A DNA stretch of 64,000 nucleotides. Origin: a virus. The notes below the pieces were generated by a model. It was not told where the DNA came from and ran no database searches. It worked only from the letters and a program-made list of their open reading frames with translations. The stretch lies in the UHGV virus genome UHGV-1351772; one strand, 5' to 3'. This document shows positions 43,713-51,340 of the stretch, one piece after another. A program made the position numbers and the translations under genes. Numbering within the stretch: the stretch's first letter is position 1; each line of letters opens with the position of its first letter.

Positions 43713-44198
43713 TTAGTATTTAGATTGTTCTACGTACTTCTTAACCAGGTAAGCGAATTCGGCAACACCGATATCACCGAACCAAATCAGGTAACCGGGG
43801 TCGATGTTGTAGTAATAACCGACGAGTTTCTTGGTGTGTGGGTTGTATAGCGTTACGATGTATTCCCAACCACAAGCGTTAGCTTTACAACCACCGCTTT
43901 CAATCCAGATTTTGTTGTTGATGTTTACCGGATACATGTTACCGCCAGGGCCATCCATGTAACCTTTAGAGCCGAACATACCATCCAGTCCCACAGGGTC
44001 TAGTGTTTTATCAACAACGGCTTTAAACGACTTATCGGTATCGTACAAGTCGTTGATGTTTGGGCACGCATTTGGCTGACCTTCCCAAGCGTTTCCATCA
44101 CAGGTAAGCAATTCGTCTGCGGAGGCCGCATCTACAGTTGGTGTGACACCGATAAACAAGAAAACCAGAAAGAACATCAGTGCATGTAAACGTTTCAT
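43713..44198 (-). CDS. Small secreted protein (signal peptide), member of tandem cluster
   Basis: 161 aa; signal peptide MKRLHALMFFLVFLFIGVTPTVDA. Confidence 0.5.
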   Translation of the reverse strand: MKRLHALMFFLVFLFIGVTPTVDAASADELLTCDGNAWEGQPNACPNINDLYDTDKSFKAVVDKTLDPVGLDGMFGSKGYMDGPGGNMYPVNINNKIWIESGGCKANACGWEYIVTLYNPHTKKLVGYYYNIDPGYLIWFGDIGVAEFAYLVKKYVEQSKY

Positions 44199-44216: not shown

Positions 44217-44609
44217 TTATTCAGCAGGGCGATTCAAGGTAACACGTCCGATTAATTCGGCGTTGTGAAAGAAGTCCACAGCGGTATAGTTACCAACGGA
44301 TAGCGGATGGATACTAACTGACATTACTTTTGGTTGTTCGCAGGCGATATCCGTCAGACGTTGGTAGACTTGCGCACGGGTGTCAGCAATGAGTAACCCC
44401 GTACACGCTTCACCACGCACTAAACGATAAACTTGCAGTTTACCGAAACTGCGCATTAACGTAGGCGTCTCATCCGGGTTGATAATCGGTGAGTCAGGAG
44501 CCGGTTCGTAATAGCGGACATCCGAATCACCGAAAGCATAAGTGCCAGTAATTCCGACCGCACAGAAAATAATGATGGTATAAAGTATAGTTCTGATATT
44601 CATTTTCAC
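44217..44609 (-). CDS. Small secreted protein (signal peptide), member of tandem cluster
   Basis: 130 aa; signal peptide MKMNIRTILYTIIIFCAVGITGTYA. Confidence 0.5.
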   Translation of the reverse strand: MKMNIRTILYTIIIFCAVGITGTYAFGDSDVRYYEPAPDSPIINPDETPTLMRSFGKLQVYRLVRGEACTGLLIADTRAQVYQRLTDIACEQPKVMSVSIHPLSVGNYTAVDFFHNAELIGRVTLNRPAE

Positions 44610-44631: not shown

Positions 44632-45093
44632 TTATTTGTTAGGACGGGTGTGTCCACAGTTCTGGAAGAAAGTTTCAGACAGACGTTCGCCTTCTACGGT
44701 AAAGTTAGCGGTGTCGTTACCATTGATACTCACACTGAAAGTTTTGGCATTACCGATAGCATTAACGAAAGCAACCCAAGCGTGTTCTGCTTTGTCACTA
44801 CCGTCCACGGTAGGGATGTTATAGGTCTTGCCGTTTACGACAATATCCAACGTGTTATCTTCCGCGTTAGTTGCACCTACGGGTTCACCGTAATACCAAA
44901 CCATGTGACCGTAAAATTTGCGATTCGCAGTTTCTGTGTCACAGTTGATAGACAGTCCGTTTCCGGCGGTGTCTTCAATTTCGTAAACTGCCTGGCCAGG
45001 GTTTTGTATTTGTTCCCAGCTGTTGATAGCGGCGTGTGCGCTATTGAGGCCGAAAGTTAAAATGGTTATTAAGAAAGTGATAAAGGTTTTCAT
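44632..45093 (-). CDS. Small secreted protein (signal peptide), member of tandem cluster
   Basis: 153 aa; signal peptide MKTFITFLITILTFGLNSAHA. Confidence 0.5.
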   Translation of the reverse strand: MKTFITFLITILTFGLNSAHAAINSWEQIQNPGQAVYEIEDTAGNGLSINCDTETANRKFYGHMVWYYGEPVGATNAEDNTLDIVVNGKTYNIPTVDGSDKAEHAWVAFVNAIGNAKTFSVSINGNDTANFTVEGERLSETFFQNCGHTRPNK

Positions 45094-45139: not shown

Positions 45140-45511
45140 TTAAATAACTGTGTTGGGTAATGCTTTAATCTGTGTATAACTATCTCCGATACCTCTTATC
45201 ATTTCCAGACGCTCTTCTGTAGAAAGGCTTTGGTTAATGTCTTTGTCAAGATTGAACAGTGTCAAGAGTTTTGCAATTGCAACCGTCAAGTTGTCGGACA
45301 GCTCGTTGTTTTTACGCCATTCTTCGTTACGGAAAATAGAGATAAGGTCTTTCGCCTGGCCTTCAGCGTGCGGTTTGGCTAACTGCGCGTCACGCTGTTC
45401 GATAAGGTATGCTTCGTTAGTAAGTAAACGTTTCAGGTTTTCTGGGTTAGTGGCAGCGCGAGTAACGATCATTAATACAACAAACGGGTCTTTAAATAAT
45501 TCGTTTTTCAT
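45140..45511 (-). CDS. Hypothetical protein
   Basis: 123-aa ORF, first gene of the operon that contains the secreted-protein cluster. Confidence 0.45.
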   Translation of the reverse strand: MKNELFKDPFVVLMIVTRAATNPENLKRLLTNEAYLIEQRDAQLAKPHAEGQAKDLISIFRNEEWRKNNELSDNLTVAIAKLLTLFNLDKDINQSLSTEERLEMIRGIGDSYTQIKALPNTVI

Positions 45512-45541: not shown

Positions 45542-45585
45542 GTGAGAGCTTTTGTACTCTCACCTAAGTAATATATATCTGAAAT
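45542..45585 (+). promoter_or_regulatory. Conserved hairpin + 22-bp AT-rich motif (copy A), candidate phage-specific promoter/regulatory element
   Basis: Hairpin GTGAGAG-CTTTTGTA-CTCTCAC followed by CTAAGTAATATATATCTGAAAT; 20 of 22 positions identical to copy B at 49851-49872. Confidence 0.4.
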
Positions 45586-45603: not shown

Positions 45604-45636
45604 ACAAAAAATAAAAGGTGGGGGTAAACCCCCACC
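45604..45636 (-). terminator. Intrinsic terminator (leftward)
   Basis: Stem GGTGGGGGT / ACCCCCACC, loop AA; T-run on the minus strand. Confidence 0.7.
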
Positions 45637-45640
45637 GATG

Positions 45641-46219
45641 TTATACATCGAACCGGTACTGCCGGGAGTTAATGAGGAACTCGGTATTCAGCTCAATCCA
45701 TTCGAGTAAATCGCCCAACGGTAATCGGTTTGGGTTTTCTAACTCAATAGACGCTACCGGATAAGAGTTTACTAATTCCGTAATTGCCTCAATACCCTCT
45801 TGCGTTCCATCGTCTTCTAAGGTGATTGTAAACGGCATATCGGTACGATCCGCATTAGGATTGTACAAACTGACTTTCGTTGCTTGGACAAACGCAGTCA
45901 GGTCGTCACGTATAATGCGTGTATCAGGCGCTAGAACTACCCAGAGATGTTGTCCAGGCTGGAGTTTACGTTTTGCGTAGTTTAAGAACGGATTAGCCGG
46001 TAAGCTTTCCAAACCACTGCAAATGTTCCGTAAATGAATACCTCGTGGGTCTTTATAGTCCACGCTGAAGATTCCTACCGGTTCCTTCGCTGCCTGTTTT
46101 ATCAGAAAGACCAATACCGTGTCCGCTCTTTCTGGTAAGGAAAGCTCTATTCCCTCAAGCTCCCCATCGACGAGGTTTTCCAACCAAACGTCTTTTCGCA
46201 TTTCTATTAATCGGTACAC
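45641..46219 (-). CDS. Hypothetical protein
   Basis: 192-aa ORF. Confidence 0.45.
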   Translation of the reverse strand: MYRLIEMRKDVWLENLVDGELEGIELSLPERADTVLVFLIKQAAKEPVGIFSVDYKDPRGIHLRNICSGLESLPANPFLNYAKRKLQPGQHLWVVLAPDTRIIRDDLTAFVQATKVSLYNPNADRTDMPFTITLEDDGTQEGIEAITELVNSYPVASIELENPNRLPLGDLLEWIELNTEFLINSRQYRFDV

Positions 46220-46231
46220 GGTACCACCTCA

Positions 46232-47005
46232 CTATTGATTAAGTTTTACATCGGCAATAAACAGCAATTGTTTACCATGTTGCTGCACTTCTTTCCAACC
46301 CAGTTTCATAGCAGCGTCAACAACATCTAACATGCTGTAACGGGACATCAACGCGGTTGATTTTGTTCCTGACATTAAATAAAGTGGCTCATTAGGGCAA
46401 CGGTCTCGAGCATCAGGAAGTTCTCGAATAACCACTGAGCCTTCGGGTACGGTAACAACATGAATCACGGTAAATGGTCTCTTGTGTGTTAAGTAGATAC
46501 GGAACCCAACGTGTTCAGATTCATGAAAGATTTTCTTCACGACCACATCTTTCAGTGTCGTCTGAACATCAGCCCCAGGTAATATCGTGGTTTCACGTGA
46601 AACGAAGCAACGACTATTTTCAATCGTGGAGAAATAATTACGTATCGGCAAACTGGCGTTATGATCGCGCAGTTTTTTGCTCAGTAGATCGAAGTTCAGT
46701 TCTTTAACTTTTTCTAACCACTCTTTGGCTTGTTGAATGTAATAACTACCGACAGCGCGATAAGTTAATACCTTACCTGTGCTCACTTGCCAAAGCTTGA
46801 TGCTTAGTGAATTTGGCTTATAGCGACGATACTCACCCCGCGTATGGTTGATGCGCTCGTAACGCTCTACATCATCAACGGGTGCAGATTCGACCGATTG
46901 TAATTGCAGCGTACGATCTAATCTATCGGCAAATAGTAGTGATGTTAGCGAACCTTCGATCATATACGGTTCGGTTTTAAAGATATCGTCTAAATGGACT
47001 TTCAT
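46232..47005 (-). CDS. Member of tandem paralog family with conserved C-terminal module
   Basis: 257 aa; C-terminus AAMKLGWKEVQQHGKQLLFIADV; N-terminus MKVHLDDIF resembles that of 48841-49578. Confidence 0.5.
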   Translation of the reverse strand: MKVHLDDIFKTEPYMIEGSLTSLLFADRLDRTLQLQSVESAPVDDVERYERINHTRGEYRRYKPNSLSIKLWQVSTGKVLTYRAVGSYYIQQAKEWLEKVKELNFDLLSKKLRDHNASLPIRNYFSTIENSRCFVSRETTILPGADVQTTLKDVVVKKIFHESEHVGFRIYLTHKRPFTVIHVVTVPEGSVVIRELPDARDRCPNEPLYLMSGTKSTALMSRYSMLDVVDAAMKLGWKEVQQHGKQLLFIADVKLNQ

Positions 47006-47027
47006 TTCTATTTCCTTCTTAACAAAA

Positions 47028-47050
47028 GCCGCGACTAAAGCGCGGCAGTT
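47028..47050 (-). terminator. Possible intrinsic terminator (leftward, weak T-tract)
   Basis: Stem GCCGCG / CGCGGC, loop ACTAAA. Confidence 0.35.
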
Positions 47051-47072
47051 AGAGAAAGTGTAGTTTCACTTA

Positions 47073-48224
47073 TTAAATGTTGGCAACAAACAACAGTTGG
47101 CTGCCGTATTTTTGCACGTCAGCCCAACCGTAGTCTTTCCCGATTATAGGTAGATGTAAAGCATCCAGCTTCTCGTCTTTCGCCTTCAGTTTCGCCACTA
47201 ACGCATTGGACTCCTCAGCACCGAGCAGTAATGCGGGTTCTTTTTCAGTACGTCCTTCTGCGGTCGGGAAGAAATCGTAATAGCTGCGAGTAGGTAAATC
47301 GACAGAAAAACTACGATTGCCTATTGTGATGAAGAACGCAACTCCTTCACAGTTAACATCTACACTACACGACCACCCCGCCTCTGTTAAAAGGTCTTTT
47401 AACAGACACCACACTTTAAGTTGGTTCTTAGAAAGTGTACGGTAGATAGCAAGATGGTCAGGAAGTAAATGCACCGCCATAATCATGTTTTCACATTTCT
47501 CGTCAAGCAACCTTGGATGTTGAATCGGGAACAATAATTCACTGATACCCACGTTATCAATTTTGTTAACAAAATCAGTTAATTCATCTTTTAAGGTACG
47601 CACGGATTTTTCTCCTTCGACTTCAATAATCTGGTGGGGTTCGCCGCTAATTAAAATGTGGTAAACGATGTCGTCGGTAGAACGGTAAGTGAGTTTGATA
47701 GCTTTATCACTTAACATTTCGTAGCGGAAGAAACTTTCGTACCAAGTTGACCCGAAATCGTTTCGTGTAAGTTCCTGCTCAACTTTGATGGTTTTTGCTT
47801 CAAAGCCGATTAACCCGCTTAATAACGCGAGTTCTGGTTTAGTTAAAATGCCCGCACCGTGAAAGGGCACTTTCTCAAGCTGAAAACATAAATTACTGAC
47901 TTTACCACTTGGGAAGACCTTAAACATAATCTTCCGGCTGCTACTCTTTTCCCTAACAACGAGTTTACGGTAATTTAGTCCACAATTTGTGTAAACCGCG
48001 AACTTGTAACCTTCAATTTCTTCATCGTAAGTACAGACATCGACAGGTGCGATAATCTCATTGTATTCAGTAAGTACACAGCAGCCCAAGTTATAACCAA
48101 ACAACTCACGTTGTAATGAAGACTCGATGGTTAAGCTTGGTAGTGACCAAACCCGATTATAGCATCTGTCCATCAGTTCTTTTAGGATCTTGGCATGTCC
48201 TGGTTTAGAAATAATATTACGCAT
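47073..48224 (-). CDS. Member of tandem paralog family with conserved C-terminal module
   Basis: 383 aa; C-terminus IIGKDYGWADVQKYGSQLLFVANI. Confidence 0.5.
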   Translation of the reverse strand: MRNIISKPGHAKILKELMDRCYNRVWSLPSLTIESSLQRELFGYNLGCCVLTEYNEIIAPVDVCTYDEEIEGYKFAVYTNCGLNYRKLVVREKSSSRKIMFKVFPSGKVSNLCFQLEKVPFHGAGILTKPELALLSGLIGFEAKTIKVEQELTRNDFGSTWYESFFRYEMLSDKAIKLTYRSTDDIVYHILISGEPHQIIEVEGEKSVRTLKDELTDFVNKIDNVGISELLFPIQHPRLLDEKCENMIMAVHLLPDHLAIYRTLSKNQLKVWCLLKDLLTEAGWSCSVDVNCEGVAFFITIGNRSFSVDLPTRSYYDFFPTAEGRTEKEPALLLGAEESNALVAKLKAKDEKLDALHLPIIGKDYGWADVQKYGSQLLFVANI

Positions 48225-48254
48225 TTTTACTCTCCTTTAGTGTTTTTTCGTTAC

Positions 48255-48809
48255 TTAAGCAGGGTAAGCTAAGAACAACAGCTGCTGGCCGATTTTACGT
48301 ACGGTATACCAACCGTGGGCTTTAGCGACCGCGATCAACGTTTCCCAGTCGTCAACATCGCACTGTTCATTCCGAAGTCTTGTAAAGAGTGCCTCGGCTT
48401 CGCTTTGGTTTAATAACTTACCTGGGTTGTCTGGGGTGCAGTCAGTAGGGGTTGGAAAGAAAGTATACTGACGCGCTAGGAGAAAATCGACCAGATACTT
48501 GGTATTTTCTTTATAAACCAGCGTGGAAGACTTTCCTTCGTGGAAGAAGCTGCCTGTTTTCCAAGCGCTATCCCCCAGTAAGCTCTGAAGGTAATCTGTA
48601 AAGCCCGTTCTGAAAGGGATATGGTTTTTACGTGTGATGTTACGACGCAGCGGGGTTTCCTCTACAGCTTGTACACTTACCCCTACTATCATCGCACCTG
48701 GCTGAATAATGCTATTGGTCAGTACGGTATAAGGACGGACAAAGAAATGTTCGCCTACGCCCTTTTCAAGGGTTTGGATAATTTCATTTTTCAGTTCAGT
48801 TTGAAACAT
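48255..48809 (-). CDS. Member of tandem paralog family with conserved C-terminal module
   Basis: 184 aa; C-terminus VAKAHGWYTVRKIGQQLLFLAYPA. Confidence 0.5.
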   Translation of the reverse strand: MFQTELKNEIIQTLEKGVGEHFFVRPYTVLTNSIIQPGAMIVGVSVQAVEETPLRRNITRKNHIPFRTGFTDYLQSLLGDSAWKTGSFFHEGKSSTLVYKENTKYLVDFLLARQYTFFPTPTDCTPDNPGKLLNQSEAEALFTRLRNEQCDVDDWETLIAVAKAHGWYTVRKIGQQLLFLAYPA

Positions 48810-48840
48810 GGTATATTCTCCTTTTTTTCGGTTTTCTTAA

Positions 48841-49578
48841 TTACGCAGTTTTAATTAACAGCAGATAGTCCTTCGTAATCTCAGCACAACTCCACCCTCT
48901 CATCGTGGCGATTTTACGAAGATCAATTTTCTCGTGATATTTCAATAAGGGATCGTCCGGGTTAATTTCAACCAGGTGTGTGGCTTTAGAAATCGTTTCC
49001 ACATCTGGGATCTGTTTTGCTAAGTCGGATGCAATCAGTTCAATAACGCGGTATCCCTTTAACACAGAAACATAGATGCGCAAGCCATATAGCGTGCCCT
49101 CGTCTTCTAATGGACAAAGATCGATGCCGGGTCCAAGCAGTGATAACTCGACGTTATCGGGAAGGTTTTCTGCATTTCGGAGTAACCCTATCCCATTTCT
49201 AAACAGAGGGAAGTAAGAGAATAGTGGTGGTAAAGGCCAACCGTTCCCAATAAGCACATCATCGATACTAGTAGGCGTGTTCGCAAGAAGACGAATGTGG
49301 TCAGCCACAACTTCAAGTTCGGCATCACTGATCAACTTATAGATTAACATGACGCTGGTTTCGGTATTAAAAACAAAGAAGACGCGGTTGGCGTAACTAC
49401 CTATCACGTATTCGTCAATCAAGCAGTCGATAACGTCACTGTCTGGATAATCTTCAGGTTTAATTGTTCCAGCATCGATTAACTTAGCAGGTTGCGATTG
49501 TTTTATTAGTTCGTTAACCACCGTAGAAGAAAGTTCTAAACTGGTATTGGTAAAGATATCGTCTAATAATTCTCTCAT
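48841..49578 (-). CDS. Member of tandem paralog family (divergent C-terminal module), first gene of leftward block
   Basis: 245 aa; N-terminus MRELLDDIF; C-terminus IATMRGWSCAEITKDYLLLIKTA. Confidence 0.5.
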   Translation of the reverse strand: MRELLDDIFTNTSLELSSTVVNELIKQSQPAKLIDAGTIKPEDYPDSDVIDCLIDEYVIGSYANRVFFVFNTETSVMLIYKLISDAELEVVADHIRLLANTPTSIDDVLIGNGWPLPPLFSYFPLFRNGIGLLRNAENLPDNVELSLLGPGIDLCPLEDEGTLYGLRIYVSVLKGYRVIELIASDLAKQIPDVETISKATHLVEINPDDPLLKYHEKIDLRKIATMRGWSCAEITKDYLLLIKTA

Positions 49579-49672
49579 GATTTACTCGCTAATCCCAATG
49601 AAGGGAAGGCTATTATTATGGATTGTAAAAGAGGTATAAGGAAGTCACTACGTTCCTCTGGGAAGAGTATGT

Positions 49673-49712
49673 CGGTATACTCCGTATACCTCCGCTATTT
49701 ATATCCGTATAC
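49673..49712. promoter_or_regulatory. Three direct repeats of C(C/G)GTATAC in divergent control region (candidate operator)
   Basis: CGGTATAC at 49673-49680, CCGTATAC at 49682-49689 and 49705-49712; each contains the palindrome GTATAC. Confidence 0.35.
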
Positions 49713-49817
49713 ATAATGCCCCTACCCCTACCGGTATCCCGAGTAGCAGAATAAAGGGTCATAATGTAATTTTTTAGTAACCTTTAACGAAAGGTACTAA
49801 AAGGGTAACGTGTCCGT

Positions 49818-49872
49818 AGGGACTGAACTGGTACTTCAGTCCCTATTCACTTAAGTAAAATATATCTGAAAT
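49818..49872 (+). promoter_or_regulatory. Conserved hairpin + 22-bp AT-rich motif (copy B), candidate phage-specific promoter for gene 49898
   Basis: Hairpin AGGGACTGAA-CTGGTAC-TTCAGTCCCT, then TTAAGTAAAATATATCTGAAAT ending about 25 nt before the ATG; AAGGA ribosome-binding site between. Confidence 0.45.
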
Positions 49873-49897: not shown

Positions 49898-50863
49898 ATG
49901 GAGAAATCCAGTGTTGATTTTTTCTCAATTGGTATCGTCGCGGAAGACAAACCCCGTGGTACAGATCGGGTAAAAGTGATACCAATTGAAACTAACTTTG
50001 CTAACCCTACTGTGGTGCAATCTGTTTCTTCAGCAACTGAAAAGACGCATGAAACATCTGGTGCAACAGATAACCTAACCATTAAGACGGGAAACACGAT
50101 AACGGCAAAGTGGTGGAAGTTTAACTCCAACCGAATTAATTCCCCTGACGTTAAACGAGAAGATTACGTTATCTTGTTACGTTTGGGGAAAACCGATATT
50201 TATTTTTGGATTGATCTGAACTTCGCTAACGTTAAGCGATTAGAAGATGCGGTTTATGCGTGGTCGGCTGACCCTGAAAACCAAATGGCGGATGACTTGT
50301 CCAATGCGTATGTGTTGAACGTTTCGACGATTGACAAACATATCACGCTAAGAACAAGTATGGTGAACGGTGAGAAAGCGGCGTGGTTGTTTCAGTTTGA
50401 TAATGCAAACGGTACGTGGCAGTGCGTTGACCATAAAGGAAACAAGTATTACATTAACTCGGTTGAAGATGATCTCGGGTTTGAGAATGCGATGCTTTCA
50501 AAAGTGAACATCAACAAAGAAGATGCGTTCATTTATTCAAAGCGTTCTATTAACCTGGAAACGAAAACGATTAATGAAAAATGCGAAGTCCGCAATACGG
50601 AAGCAGCGAATTCCGTTACGTTTAAAACACAAACCTGGTTAACAGAAGCGGGCAGTTCGACAACGTTTAAAACGCCGAACTTTAAACAAGAAGGGAAGGA
50701 AGCGATGTTCACCGGTAATTTGGAAGTCGCTAAGAACTTCAAATACGGTGGTACGGGTGAGGGTGTGGGTGTCTTTACGGTTAAAGATGCCGTTATTTCC
50801 GGTATTACCTTTAGCGTTCACATTCACCAAGGTAAACATGGCCCGACATCACCTCCGCAGTAA
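49898..50863 (+). CDS. Hypothetical protein, possibly virion structural (beta-rich, repeated TFKT segments)
   Basis: 321-aa ORF; first rightward gene after the control region; C-terminal repeated TFKTQ/TFKTP motifs. Confidence 0.45.
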   Translation: MEKSSVDFFSIGIVAEDKPRGTDRVKVIPIETNFANPTVVQSVSSATEKTHETSGATDNLTIKTGNTITAKWWKFNSNRINSPDVKREDYVILLRLGKTDIYFWIDLNFANVKRLEDAVYAWSADPENQMADDLSNAYVLNVSTIDKHITLRTSMVNGEKAAWLFQFDNANGTWQCVDHKGNKYYINSVEDDLGFENAMLSKVNINKEDAFIYSKRSINLETKTINEKCEVRNTEAANSVTFKTQTWLTEAGSSTTFKTPNFKQEGKEAMFTGNLEVAKNFKYGGTGEGVGVFTVKDAVISGITFSVHIHQGKHGPTSPPQ

Positions 50864-51069
50864 TTCCCCTTTTTCTTACGTTGTTTTTATATATTGTGAC
50901 CTGACGTTGGTAAAGCTTTTTATCAACACTTTTCTTAAACCCATCGTTTAGTTAAGCAGGCCACTTTTTTCGCGCACTCTACTCCTCCCTACGGGGAGGA
51001 GCTATCTTATGCTTCGGTTGTAACACACGTCGGTCTTAGACCACCTTCCTTTTGAAATGGAGAGCTGTT

Positions 51070-51279
51070 ATGTCTATTAAAGAGTTCTCTTCTGCTGAGC
51101 ATATTCCAGAAGAGTTTAAGAAAATCGGTAACGTTAGCGCTTTCGGCGACACCGTTGATCATGTAACGGGTAAGCTGGCTGCTGAAGCTGAAAAAATTGG
51201 CGGCGACGCATTCAAAGTTATCGGTATTTCCGGCAACAACAAACTGCACGGTAACGCAATTGTCTACAAAAAAGACTAA
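51070..51279 (+). CDS. DUF1471 (YdgH/BhsA/McbA-family) domain protein lacking a signal peptide
   Basis: Start placed at MSIKEF (GGAGAG upstream); IGNVSAFGDTVDHVTGKLAAEAEKIGGDAFKVIGISGNNKLHGNAIVYK matches the DUF1471 core; own upstream hairpin and strong downstream terminator. Confidence 0.55.
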   Translation: MSIKEFSSAEHIPEEFKKIGNVSAFGDTVDHVTGKLAAEAEKIGGDAFKVIGISGNNKLHGNAIVYKKD

Positions 51280-51280
51280 G

Positions 51281-51340
51281 CGAAAAAAAAACGTGCTACT
51301 CCTACCCTCTTAGAGGGTAGGAGGTTACTTTATTTTTTTC
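51281..51340. terminator. Bidirectional intrinsic terminator
   Basis: 11-bp stem CTCCTACCCTC / GAGGGTAGGAG with 3-nt loop, flanked by A-run and T-run. Confidence 0.75.

Follow-up and report, generated by a model that had tools for sequence, protein, structure and literature searches.

In phage T4, the internal proteins are encoded by a hyperplastic locus and carry a capsid-targeting sequence that serves as a common address label, and one of them, IPI*, has an anti-restriction function. A protein closer to the genes considered here, gp175, is common to the jumbo phages SPN3US, phiEaH2, and CR5 and has no phiKZ counterpart (Thomas et al. 2016 supplement, PMC5105663). We analyzed a block of four consecutive leftward genes, A to D, in a 64,000-nucleotide stretch of the virus genome UHGV-1351772 (referred to below as the window), which belongs to a giant enterobacterial phage. 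On the sequence comparisons, A, B, and C are a true paralogous family built on a conserved C-terminal module, with A/D and B/C as two sub-pairs. SPN3US gp175, phiEaH2 gp097, and the CR5 homolog resemble A to C in this C-terminal domain (hidden Markov model [HMM] E values of 1e-9 to 1e-25), in the syntenic site, and in having a variable N terminus. SPN3US and phiEaH2 have one copy each, however, and no similarity was detected between the N-terminal regions of the window proteins and those of gp175 or gp097.

An initial annotation, made from the sequence without database searches, had described A to D as a diversified array whose members end in the same module. All four minus-strand open reading frames (ORFs) were found at exactly the predicted coordinates, with C-terminal strings matching those quoted earlier:

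Gene D, 48841..49578, minus strand: 245 amino acids (aa); probable A-like paralog with an eroded C-terminal module at ~48844-49023
Gene C, 48255..48809, minus strand: 184 aa; N-terminal alpha/beta region followed by the module at ~48258-48467
Gene B, 47073..48224, minus strand: 383 aa; unique N-terminal half and C-like C-terminal half, with the module at ~47076-47285
Gene A, 46232..47005, minus strand: 257 aa; D-like N-terminal region followed by the module at ~46235-46426

The C-terminal similarity of A, B, and C is significant in both pairwise and profile alignments. BLASTP aligned A with B at an E value of 4e-9 over 65 aa, A with C at 1e-6 over 64 aa, and B with C at 1e-12 over 108 aa; HHalign comparisons of ortholog profiles gave 6.5e-9 over 61 columns, 1e-4, and 9e-11 over 167 columns for the same three pairs. 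An HMM constructed from A, B, and C matched only these three proteins among all six-frame ORFs of the 64-kb window (E values of 1e-19 to 1e-23). The similarity between B and C is wider than the module, extending over ~108-167 aa: residues 210-381 of B pair with residues 5-181 of C (HHalign, E = 9e-11), such that C corresponds to the C-terminal half of B. The N-terminal regions of the A/D pair are unrelated to those of the B/C pair by HHalign, in agreement with the earlier description of these regions as largely different. We also considered whether a repeated alpha/beta unit makes up these N-terminal regions as an array and rejected this, as HHalign comparisons among B(1-209), B(210-315), C(1-115), and the A and D N termini detected similarity only between A and D.

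The position of D is less firm, and here the proposal of four genes sharing one module held only in part. The module HMM did not match D, and neither BLASTP nor HHalign detected similarity of D to B or C. Comparison with A gave a weak BLASTP match (E = 0.003, 131 aa, 17% identity) and an HHalign match that is full-length but weak (E = 0.004, probability 9%, 222 collinear columns), and the N-terminal parts by themselves aligned at E = 0.003 in HHalign. Matches in the A-D alignment follow the order M[KR]xxLDDIF, G[FL]RIY, [LI]PD, NxDP, GW, and LLxI. Approximately 11 residues at the expected position of helix alpha-1 are missing from D, and a conserved G and Q are also lost. These features suggest that D is probably a diverged A-like copy with an eroded module, albeit on marginal statistics.

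The shared unit is considerably larger than the ~25 residues originally assigned to it. The alignment gives ~65-70 aa, starting with a PDxxDRSxNEPxYLMS block upstream of GW...QLLF, and the layout can be written as [IL]PDxxDR[ST]xN[ED]PxYLMS[AS] followed by two helices that are separated by a variable insert of 0-30 aa, with GW at the end of the second helix, and then xxVxxxGxQLLF[IV][AS]. A profile search, which the initial annotation had suggested, was carried out as an exhaustive HMMER scan of 1.8 billion representatives and recovered ~37 true clusters of 72-423 aa; the matches P0067 and P0074 were discarded as repetitive false positives. The module is C-terminal in nearly all of these clusters, with a few small proteins running 20-30 residues past it. 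The hits of word-indexed protein searches were nearly all close orthologs of C, and a CR5-type module query returned one protein. Stand-alone module proteins of 72-130 aa are present in other phages, including one locus on a 312-kb contig and another in a smaller phage, flanked there by a DNA methyltransferase gene on one side and a Bro-N gene on the other. Because such stand-alone forms occur elsewhere, the module is autonomous and not confined to the SPN3US-like clade. It had not been recognized before, and we found no match to it in Pfam, PDB sequences, NCBIfam, or PADLOC. The sole family labels, obtained for A and B, were phrog_26772/33648/24489/18480, all of unknown function, and the literature matches for "SPN3US gp175" all concern the phiKZ gp175 protease and are irrelevant here. 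The module is a small, previously undescribed domain family that follows a known evolutionary pattern.

For structure prediction, likewise suggested earlier, an alignment-based AlphaFold model of C replaced an unusable single-sequence run (predicted local distance difference test [pLDDT] of 45). The model reached a pLDDT of 82, with >88 in the module, and a predicted template modeling score of 0.72. After the alpha/beta region, the module is modeled as beta(130-133)-alpha(135-147)-alpha(155-164)-beta(169-173)-beta(176-180), i.e., as an extended PDxxDRSxNEP segment followed by a predicted beta-alpha-alpha-beta-beta unit that appears winged-helix-like. Foldseek returned nothing significant for the C model against the PDB, and structural matches in BFVD were confined to uncharacterized Erwinia and Klebsiella jumbo-phage proteins, phiEaH2 gp097 among them.

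This predicted topology raises the possibility that the module is a nucleic-acid-binding winged helix following an excisionase, MerR, or Bro-like logic, in which case A to D would be early regulators of transcription, replication, or RNA whose N-terminal regions sense or recruit factors. The beta-alpha-alpha-beta-beta order with a C-terminal beta-hairpin wing is indeed present in the AlphaFold model. No significant superposition on solved excisionase or MerR structures was obtained, and neither a basic recognition helix or wing nor a tight inter-helix turn was found. None of 29 module sequences matched the HTH_17 or MerR models at E<=1, and the charge of the module is near neutral (mean net charge of -0.6 for the whole module and +0.8 for alpha-2 together with the wing). 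The near-neutral charge and the variable inter-helix insert argue, if not conclusively, against a classical DNA-binding helix-turn-helix, and an excisionase/MerR identity is not supported, since the likeness extends to topology only. The Bro-N/KilA-N families likewise combine one small domain with many partners, have several paralogs per genome and stand-alone versions, and are located in early or accessory regions, but their domains are N-terminal, represented in Pfam, and DNA binding, whereas the module is C-terminal, near neutral, and without a profile match. We regard a nucleic-acid-binding role as rather unlikely.

The genomic setting links the array to a known group of phages. The gene at 49898-50863 encodes a baseplate protein with 73% identity to phiEaH2 gp095 and 62% identity to the SPN3US protein, and further genes in the window encode SbcC-like, UvsX-like, RNase H-like, and large virion proteins. 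By these matches the window belongs to an SPN3US/phiEaH2-like jumbo phage of the phiKZ group. A single module gene is found at the same site in SPN3US (gp175, 412 aa), phiEaH2 (gp097, 223 aa), CR5, Phobos, and the metagenomic relatives L004, L005, and L011, separated from the baseplate gene by one short gene or none and in divergent orientation; the array in the window is likewise beside the baseplate gene and divergent from it. The window lineage has three module copies plus D, in the order D-C-B-A both in the window and in five close relatives (L008-L010, L012, and L013). Since the other phages carry one copy at the same site, the array is a lineage-specific expansion of a conserved single gene.

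We next compared amino acid identities of the window genes with the five close relatives and estimated the ratio of nonsynonymous to synonymous divergence (dN/dS). The values, listed in the order of the relatives where given individually, were as follows:

Gene D: identity 96, 83, 78, 98, and 73%; dN/dS 0.12-0.37
Gene C: identity 42, 46, 42, 87, and 95%; dN/dS 0.15-0.24
Gene B: identity 71, 71, 42, 41, and 98%; dN/dS 0.22-0.35
Gene A: dN/dS 0.14-0.15
Gene E, 45641..46219, minus strand: 192 aa; SPN3US gp177-like, phrog_20879; conserved neighbor in the same putative transcription unit, not a family member; identity 91-99%
Baseplate gene: identity 93-100%
Gene E, the baseplate gene, and the gene at 51330: dN/dS 0.01-0.11

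Between loci, B, C, and D differ in their identity patterns, a discordance that indicates allele replacement. The dN/dS values show that A to D are all genuine coding genes, on which selection is purifying but relaxed. Synonymous divergence (dS) also shifts at the junction of N terminus and module inside single genes: dS is 0.20 in the N-terminal region and 1.46 in the module for C versus L012, 0.81 and 0.31 for A versus L012, and 0.50 and 1.29 for B versus L008. In the CR5-like phages, median identity is 81% in the modules compared to 9% (unalignable) in the N-terminal regions. The dS jumps and this contrast indicate that recombination repeatedly joins different N-terminal regions to the conserved module. 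The locus clearly exemplifies a recombination hot spot, and the array is diversified as had been proposed, with breakpoints at the module boundary. The modular and diversifying aspects of the earlier proposal are supported, while the effector, anti-defense, and docking roles suggested with them are hypothetical. As in polymorphic toxins (Rhs, contact-dependent inhibition, and MuF-type systems), one end of the protein is conserved and the opposite end is exchanged at a sharp recombination junction. The analogy does not extend further, because those proteins have a conserved N-terminal delivery part, a variable C-terminal toxin, and a cognate immunity gene, whereas the polarity here is reversed, with the N terminus variable. 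No toxin domain was found in A to D with Pfam, no recurrent small immunity-like gene lies downstream, and no link to secretion or packaging was detected.

The same data bear on the alternative that A to D are dispensable, fast-drifting ORFan paralogs, in which the module is a folding or dimerization scaffold kept by descent and the array a product of neutral duplication in a recombination-prone region. This view draws support from the dN/dS above that of the neighbors, the apparent ongoing loss of the module from D, the lack of functional annotation in any database, and the variable presence of neighboring genes (gene F, described below, which is shared only with L013, and gp176/178/179, which are found only in SPN3US). 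However, purifying selection still acts on all four genes, since dN/dS is far lower than 1 although dS is substantial; the module retains ~81% identity where the N termini are unalignable; and different genera keep it at one syntenic site, while unrelated phages have it as a stand-alone gene. Purifying selection, module conservation, syntenic retention, and the stand-alone genes together point to a selected function for the module itself, and we consider this alternative rather unlikely.

A structural or packaged role could be addressed with published data for SPN3US; this evidence concerns the homolog gp175 and not the window phage itself. The mass spectrometry tables of the SPN3US virion list proteins 168-171 and 173 and then 193, with 174-192 undetected in wild-type and mutant particles (PMC5694885). 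The absence of gp175 disfavors a packaging tag and removes the objection, foreseen in the initial annotation, that the module belongs to a structural protein. The proposal that the module serves as a tag for packaging or ejection, or that the proteins are baseplate- or tail-associated structural components, derives some appeal from the location of the block next to baseplate and virion structural genes and from the combination of hypervariable cargo and conserved tag, which recalls the T4 internal-protein locus. That locus likewise joins a short conserved unit to highly variable cargo in a recombination-prone region of a large lytic phage, by analogy only. In T4, however, the tag is a short N-terminal peptide cut by the prohead protease and the proteins are packaged in the virion, whereas the unit here is C-terminal, a folded domain of ~65 aa without a protease-site signature, and its SPN3US homolog is missing from the particle. 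Moreover, the genes are divergent from the baseplate gene and lie behind an early-type promoter. We accordingly disfavor a structural or packaged role and judge it very improbable.

Inspection of the intergenic regions suggested how the array may be transcribed. The following elements were identified:

Early-type promoter motif TTTCAGATATATTTTACTTAAGTGA, 49847..49871, minus strand: heads the putative D-C-B(-A-E) unit
9-bp stem-loop GGGACTGAA-GTACCAG-TTCAGTCCC, 49819..49843, minus strand: just downstream of the promoter motif
Conserved non-coding leader element, 49633..49760, minus strand: two G-tracts followed by GCGGAGGT-hairpin-ACCGACAT...CCTTAT; in the interval that separates the promoter from the D start codon
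Terminator-like hairpin with T-run, 47028..47046, minus strand: between B and A; GCCGCGCTTTAGTCGCGGC TTTTGTTAAG
Strong terminator-like hairpin, 45617..45636, minus strand: ends the unit after E; GGTGGGGGTTTACCCCCACC TTTTATTTTT
Second early-type promoter copy, 45560..45584, minus strand: after the strong terminator behind E; starts the next leftward unit (F and downstream genes)

The 25-nt motif, TTTCAGATATAT(A/T)TTACTTA(A/G)GTGA, has exactly two copies in the window, both on the minus strand, versus 0 expected. It recurs at many loci (L026-L091) in SPN3US, phiEaH2, CR5, Phobos, and other genomes of 205-246 kb, with a constant architecture of A/T tract, motif, short 5′ stem-loop, 20-30 nt, Shine-Dalgarno sequence, and ATG; the clade-wide form of the element is (A/T tract)-TCAGATATATWTTAC-YTRRGTGA followed by the short 5′ stem-loop. 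In the CR5-like phages, the motif is directly ahead of the single module gene. The window motif contains the phiKZ early-promoter core TATATTAC and is near-identical to the extended consensus of 201phi2-1, OBP, and N1M2 (consensus sequences in PMC7058600, Table 2). In the phiKZ group, AT-rich elements of this type are reviewed as promoters of the injected virion RNA polymerase and are likewise found at multiple operon starts; the 64-kb window, by comparison, has only two copies, and 269 nt separate the D copy from the start codon, versus ~55-75 nt at other copies of the motif. Such an element has apparently not been described for SPN3US-like phages in the literature searched, and our search found no transcriptome for this clade. 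Sigma-70-like sites occur at chance level (16 versus 16.2 expected). We therefore do not favor host sigma-70 promoters, and this count fits phages with their own polymerases. The array was originally said to hold the first genes transcribed leftward from a control region at 49.6 kb. They are indeed the first genes downstream of an early-type promoter in the 49.6-49.9 kb intergenic region, but this region is a divergent junction with the baseplate gene rather than a genome-wide control region.

The stem-loop at 49819..49843 is probably the 5′-end hairpin of the transcript, and equivalent hairpins follow the motif at other copies in relatives. The leader element is kept in the window lineage, phiEaH2 (L014 8971-9131), L011, and SPN3US (L016 3457-3617), where it lies upstream of D/gp174/gp096, and is absent in the CR5-like phages. 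The stem of its central hairpin differs between lineages, with two compensatory pairs, and an Rfam search returned only a chance U5 match (E = 0.3). The element accounts for the unusual length of the D leader (269 nt) and could be a structured regulatory RNA, and the 48-aa ORF at 49616-49762 that overlaps it is probably not a gene. From the arrangement of these elements, we infer a transcription unit composed of promoter, 269-nt leader, D-C-B, a partial stop, A-E, and a stop, in which the hairpin between B and A could give D-C-B and A-E different expression levels. We note that a TACT sequence with an A-rich run (GGTTACTAAAAAATTACA) is present at 49770-49795 (minus strand), between the early-type motif and the leader, with an equivalent in L008/L012/L013. 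Middle promoters of phiKZ have been described as TACT plus an A-repeat (PMC8244752), and by analogy the array may be under dual early and middle promoters.

Taken together, the interpretation we favor, at somewhat less than even confidence, is that A to D constitute an early non-virion accessory family in which a conserved C-terminal domain has a constant task and an exchangeable N-terminal region a changing specificity. Homology, domain limits, synteny, copy number, promoter motif, mosaicism, relaxed purifying selection, and absence from the SPN3US virion are direct results, to which we add by inference the early timing, the protein-binding role of the module, and the host-directed function. 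In this scheme, A, B, and C, and probably D in degenerate form, would be paralogs of an accessory family restricted to the SPN3US/phiEaH2/CR5-like jumbo phages, each protein consisting of an exchangeable N-terminal region and an autonomously folding C-terminal domain. An ancestral single gene beside the baseplate gene would have expanded to an array in the window lineage and would be continually remodeled by recombination linking different N-terminal regions to the module. Transcription would proceed from the phiKZ-type early promoter, with the injected virion RNA polymerase as the presumed enzyme, to yield a D-C-B unit with partial termination before A-E, and the products would be non-virion proteins. 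The module may bind one invariant partner, which could be a phage protein, a host protein, or itself through oligomerization, while the variable N-terminal region would provide changing specificity towards host factors; the outcome would be an early host-interaction or counter-defense family. The pattern of the family fits expectations for host-interaction or counter-defense genes, and A to D are good, if unproven, candidates for host-interaction proteins.

Several observations weigh against this interpretation. The early timing is drawn from promoter-motif similarity, SPN3US and phiEaH2 have no motif directly upstream of gp174/gp175, and the long leader of D may reflect a more complex regulation. 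The membership of D in the family is statistically marginal. The modeled winged-helix-like topology of the module would be compatible with nucleic-acid binding. Relaxed selection and mosaicism are equally expected of dispensable genes without a host-directed role. Finally, every database name of family members is "hypothetical protein," and no annotation or experiment ties any of them to a function.

A bolder proposal, which we think is unlikely as it stands, is that the module is a dedicated docking device through which interchangeable N-terminal "warheads" are attached, early in infection, to a single conserved machine of the phage or the host. This machine could be the nuclear shell or early infection compartment, a host protease, or RNA polymerase. 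SPN3US-like nucleus-forming phages would then have a cassette system of counter-defense or host-takeover effectors, exchanged between phages at the module junction and, in the window lineage, expanded to an array.

Megablast against a phage collection gave no DNA-level match to the A-D block among cultured phage records, and tblastn with B against the same collection gave no match. The window lineage is common in metagenomes and IMG/VR as ~225-kb contigs, and two complete bacterial genome assemblies contain it as circular "plasmid" records, NZ_CP173450.1 (E. coli 98232, 221,873 bp) and NZ_CP134650.1 (Enterobacter ludwigii, 222,441 bp). Gene calls by the Prokaryotic Genome Annotation Pipeline in a related record comprise the same genes as A to D, all named hypothetical protein. 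Orthologs on ~225-kb contigs are also labeled as Shigella, Salmonella, and Enterobacter isolates. The "plasmid" deposits and isolate labels suggest either that the lineage persists in a carrier or pseudolysogenic state or that phage contaminated the cultures.

Downstream of the second promoter, the next unit begins with the following gene:

Gene F, 45140..45511, minus strand: 123 aa, phrog_27024; directly after the second promoter

Among the six close relatives, F is present only in the window and L013 and is an accessory insertion. Further along, the consecutive minus-strand genes at 43713-44198, 44217-44609, and 44632-45093 encode small proteins with signal-peptide-like hydrophobic N termini (for example, MKRLHALMFFLVFLFIGVTPTVDA|AS and MKTFITFLITILTFGLNSAHA|A), and these are possibly exported or periplasmic phage proteins. 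On the other side of the array, a plus-strand gene at 51052-51279, adjoining the baseplate gene, encodes a small DUF1471/YdgH-BhsA-like protein, a bacterial stress/periplasmic family; its SPN3US homolog gp172 (7 kDa) has been reported to be the smallest virion protein (PMC5694885).

Nucleus-forming jumbo phages are under development for therapy, and most of their early genes have no assigned function. The A-D block offers a defined handle on such genes: a small domain outside Pfam and the PDB, present across several genera, to which regions exchanged between near-identical phages are attached. Even if the module is not a docking element, the locus retains its value as an instance of a recombination hot spot and identifies the early promoter of the clade. 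If the module is a common docking element, it would provide a simple sequence rule for finding host-interaction and anti-defense genes in such phages and a natural scaffold for swapping specificities.

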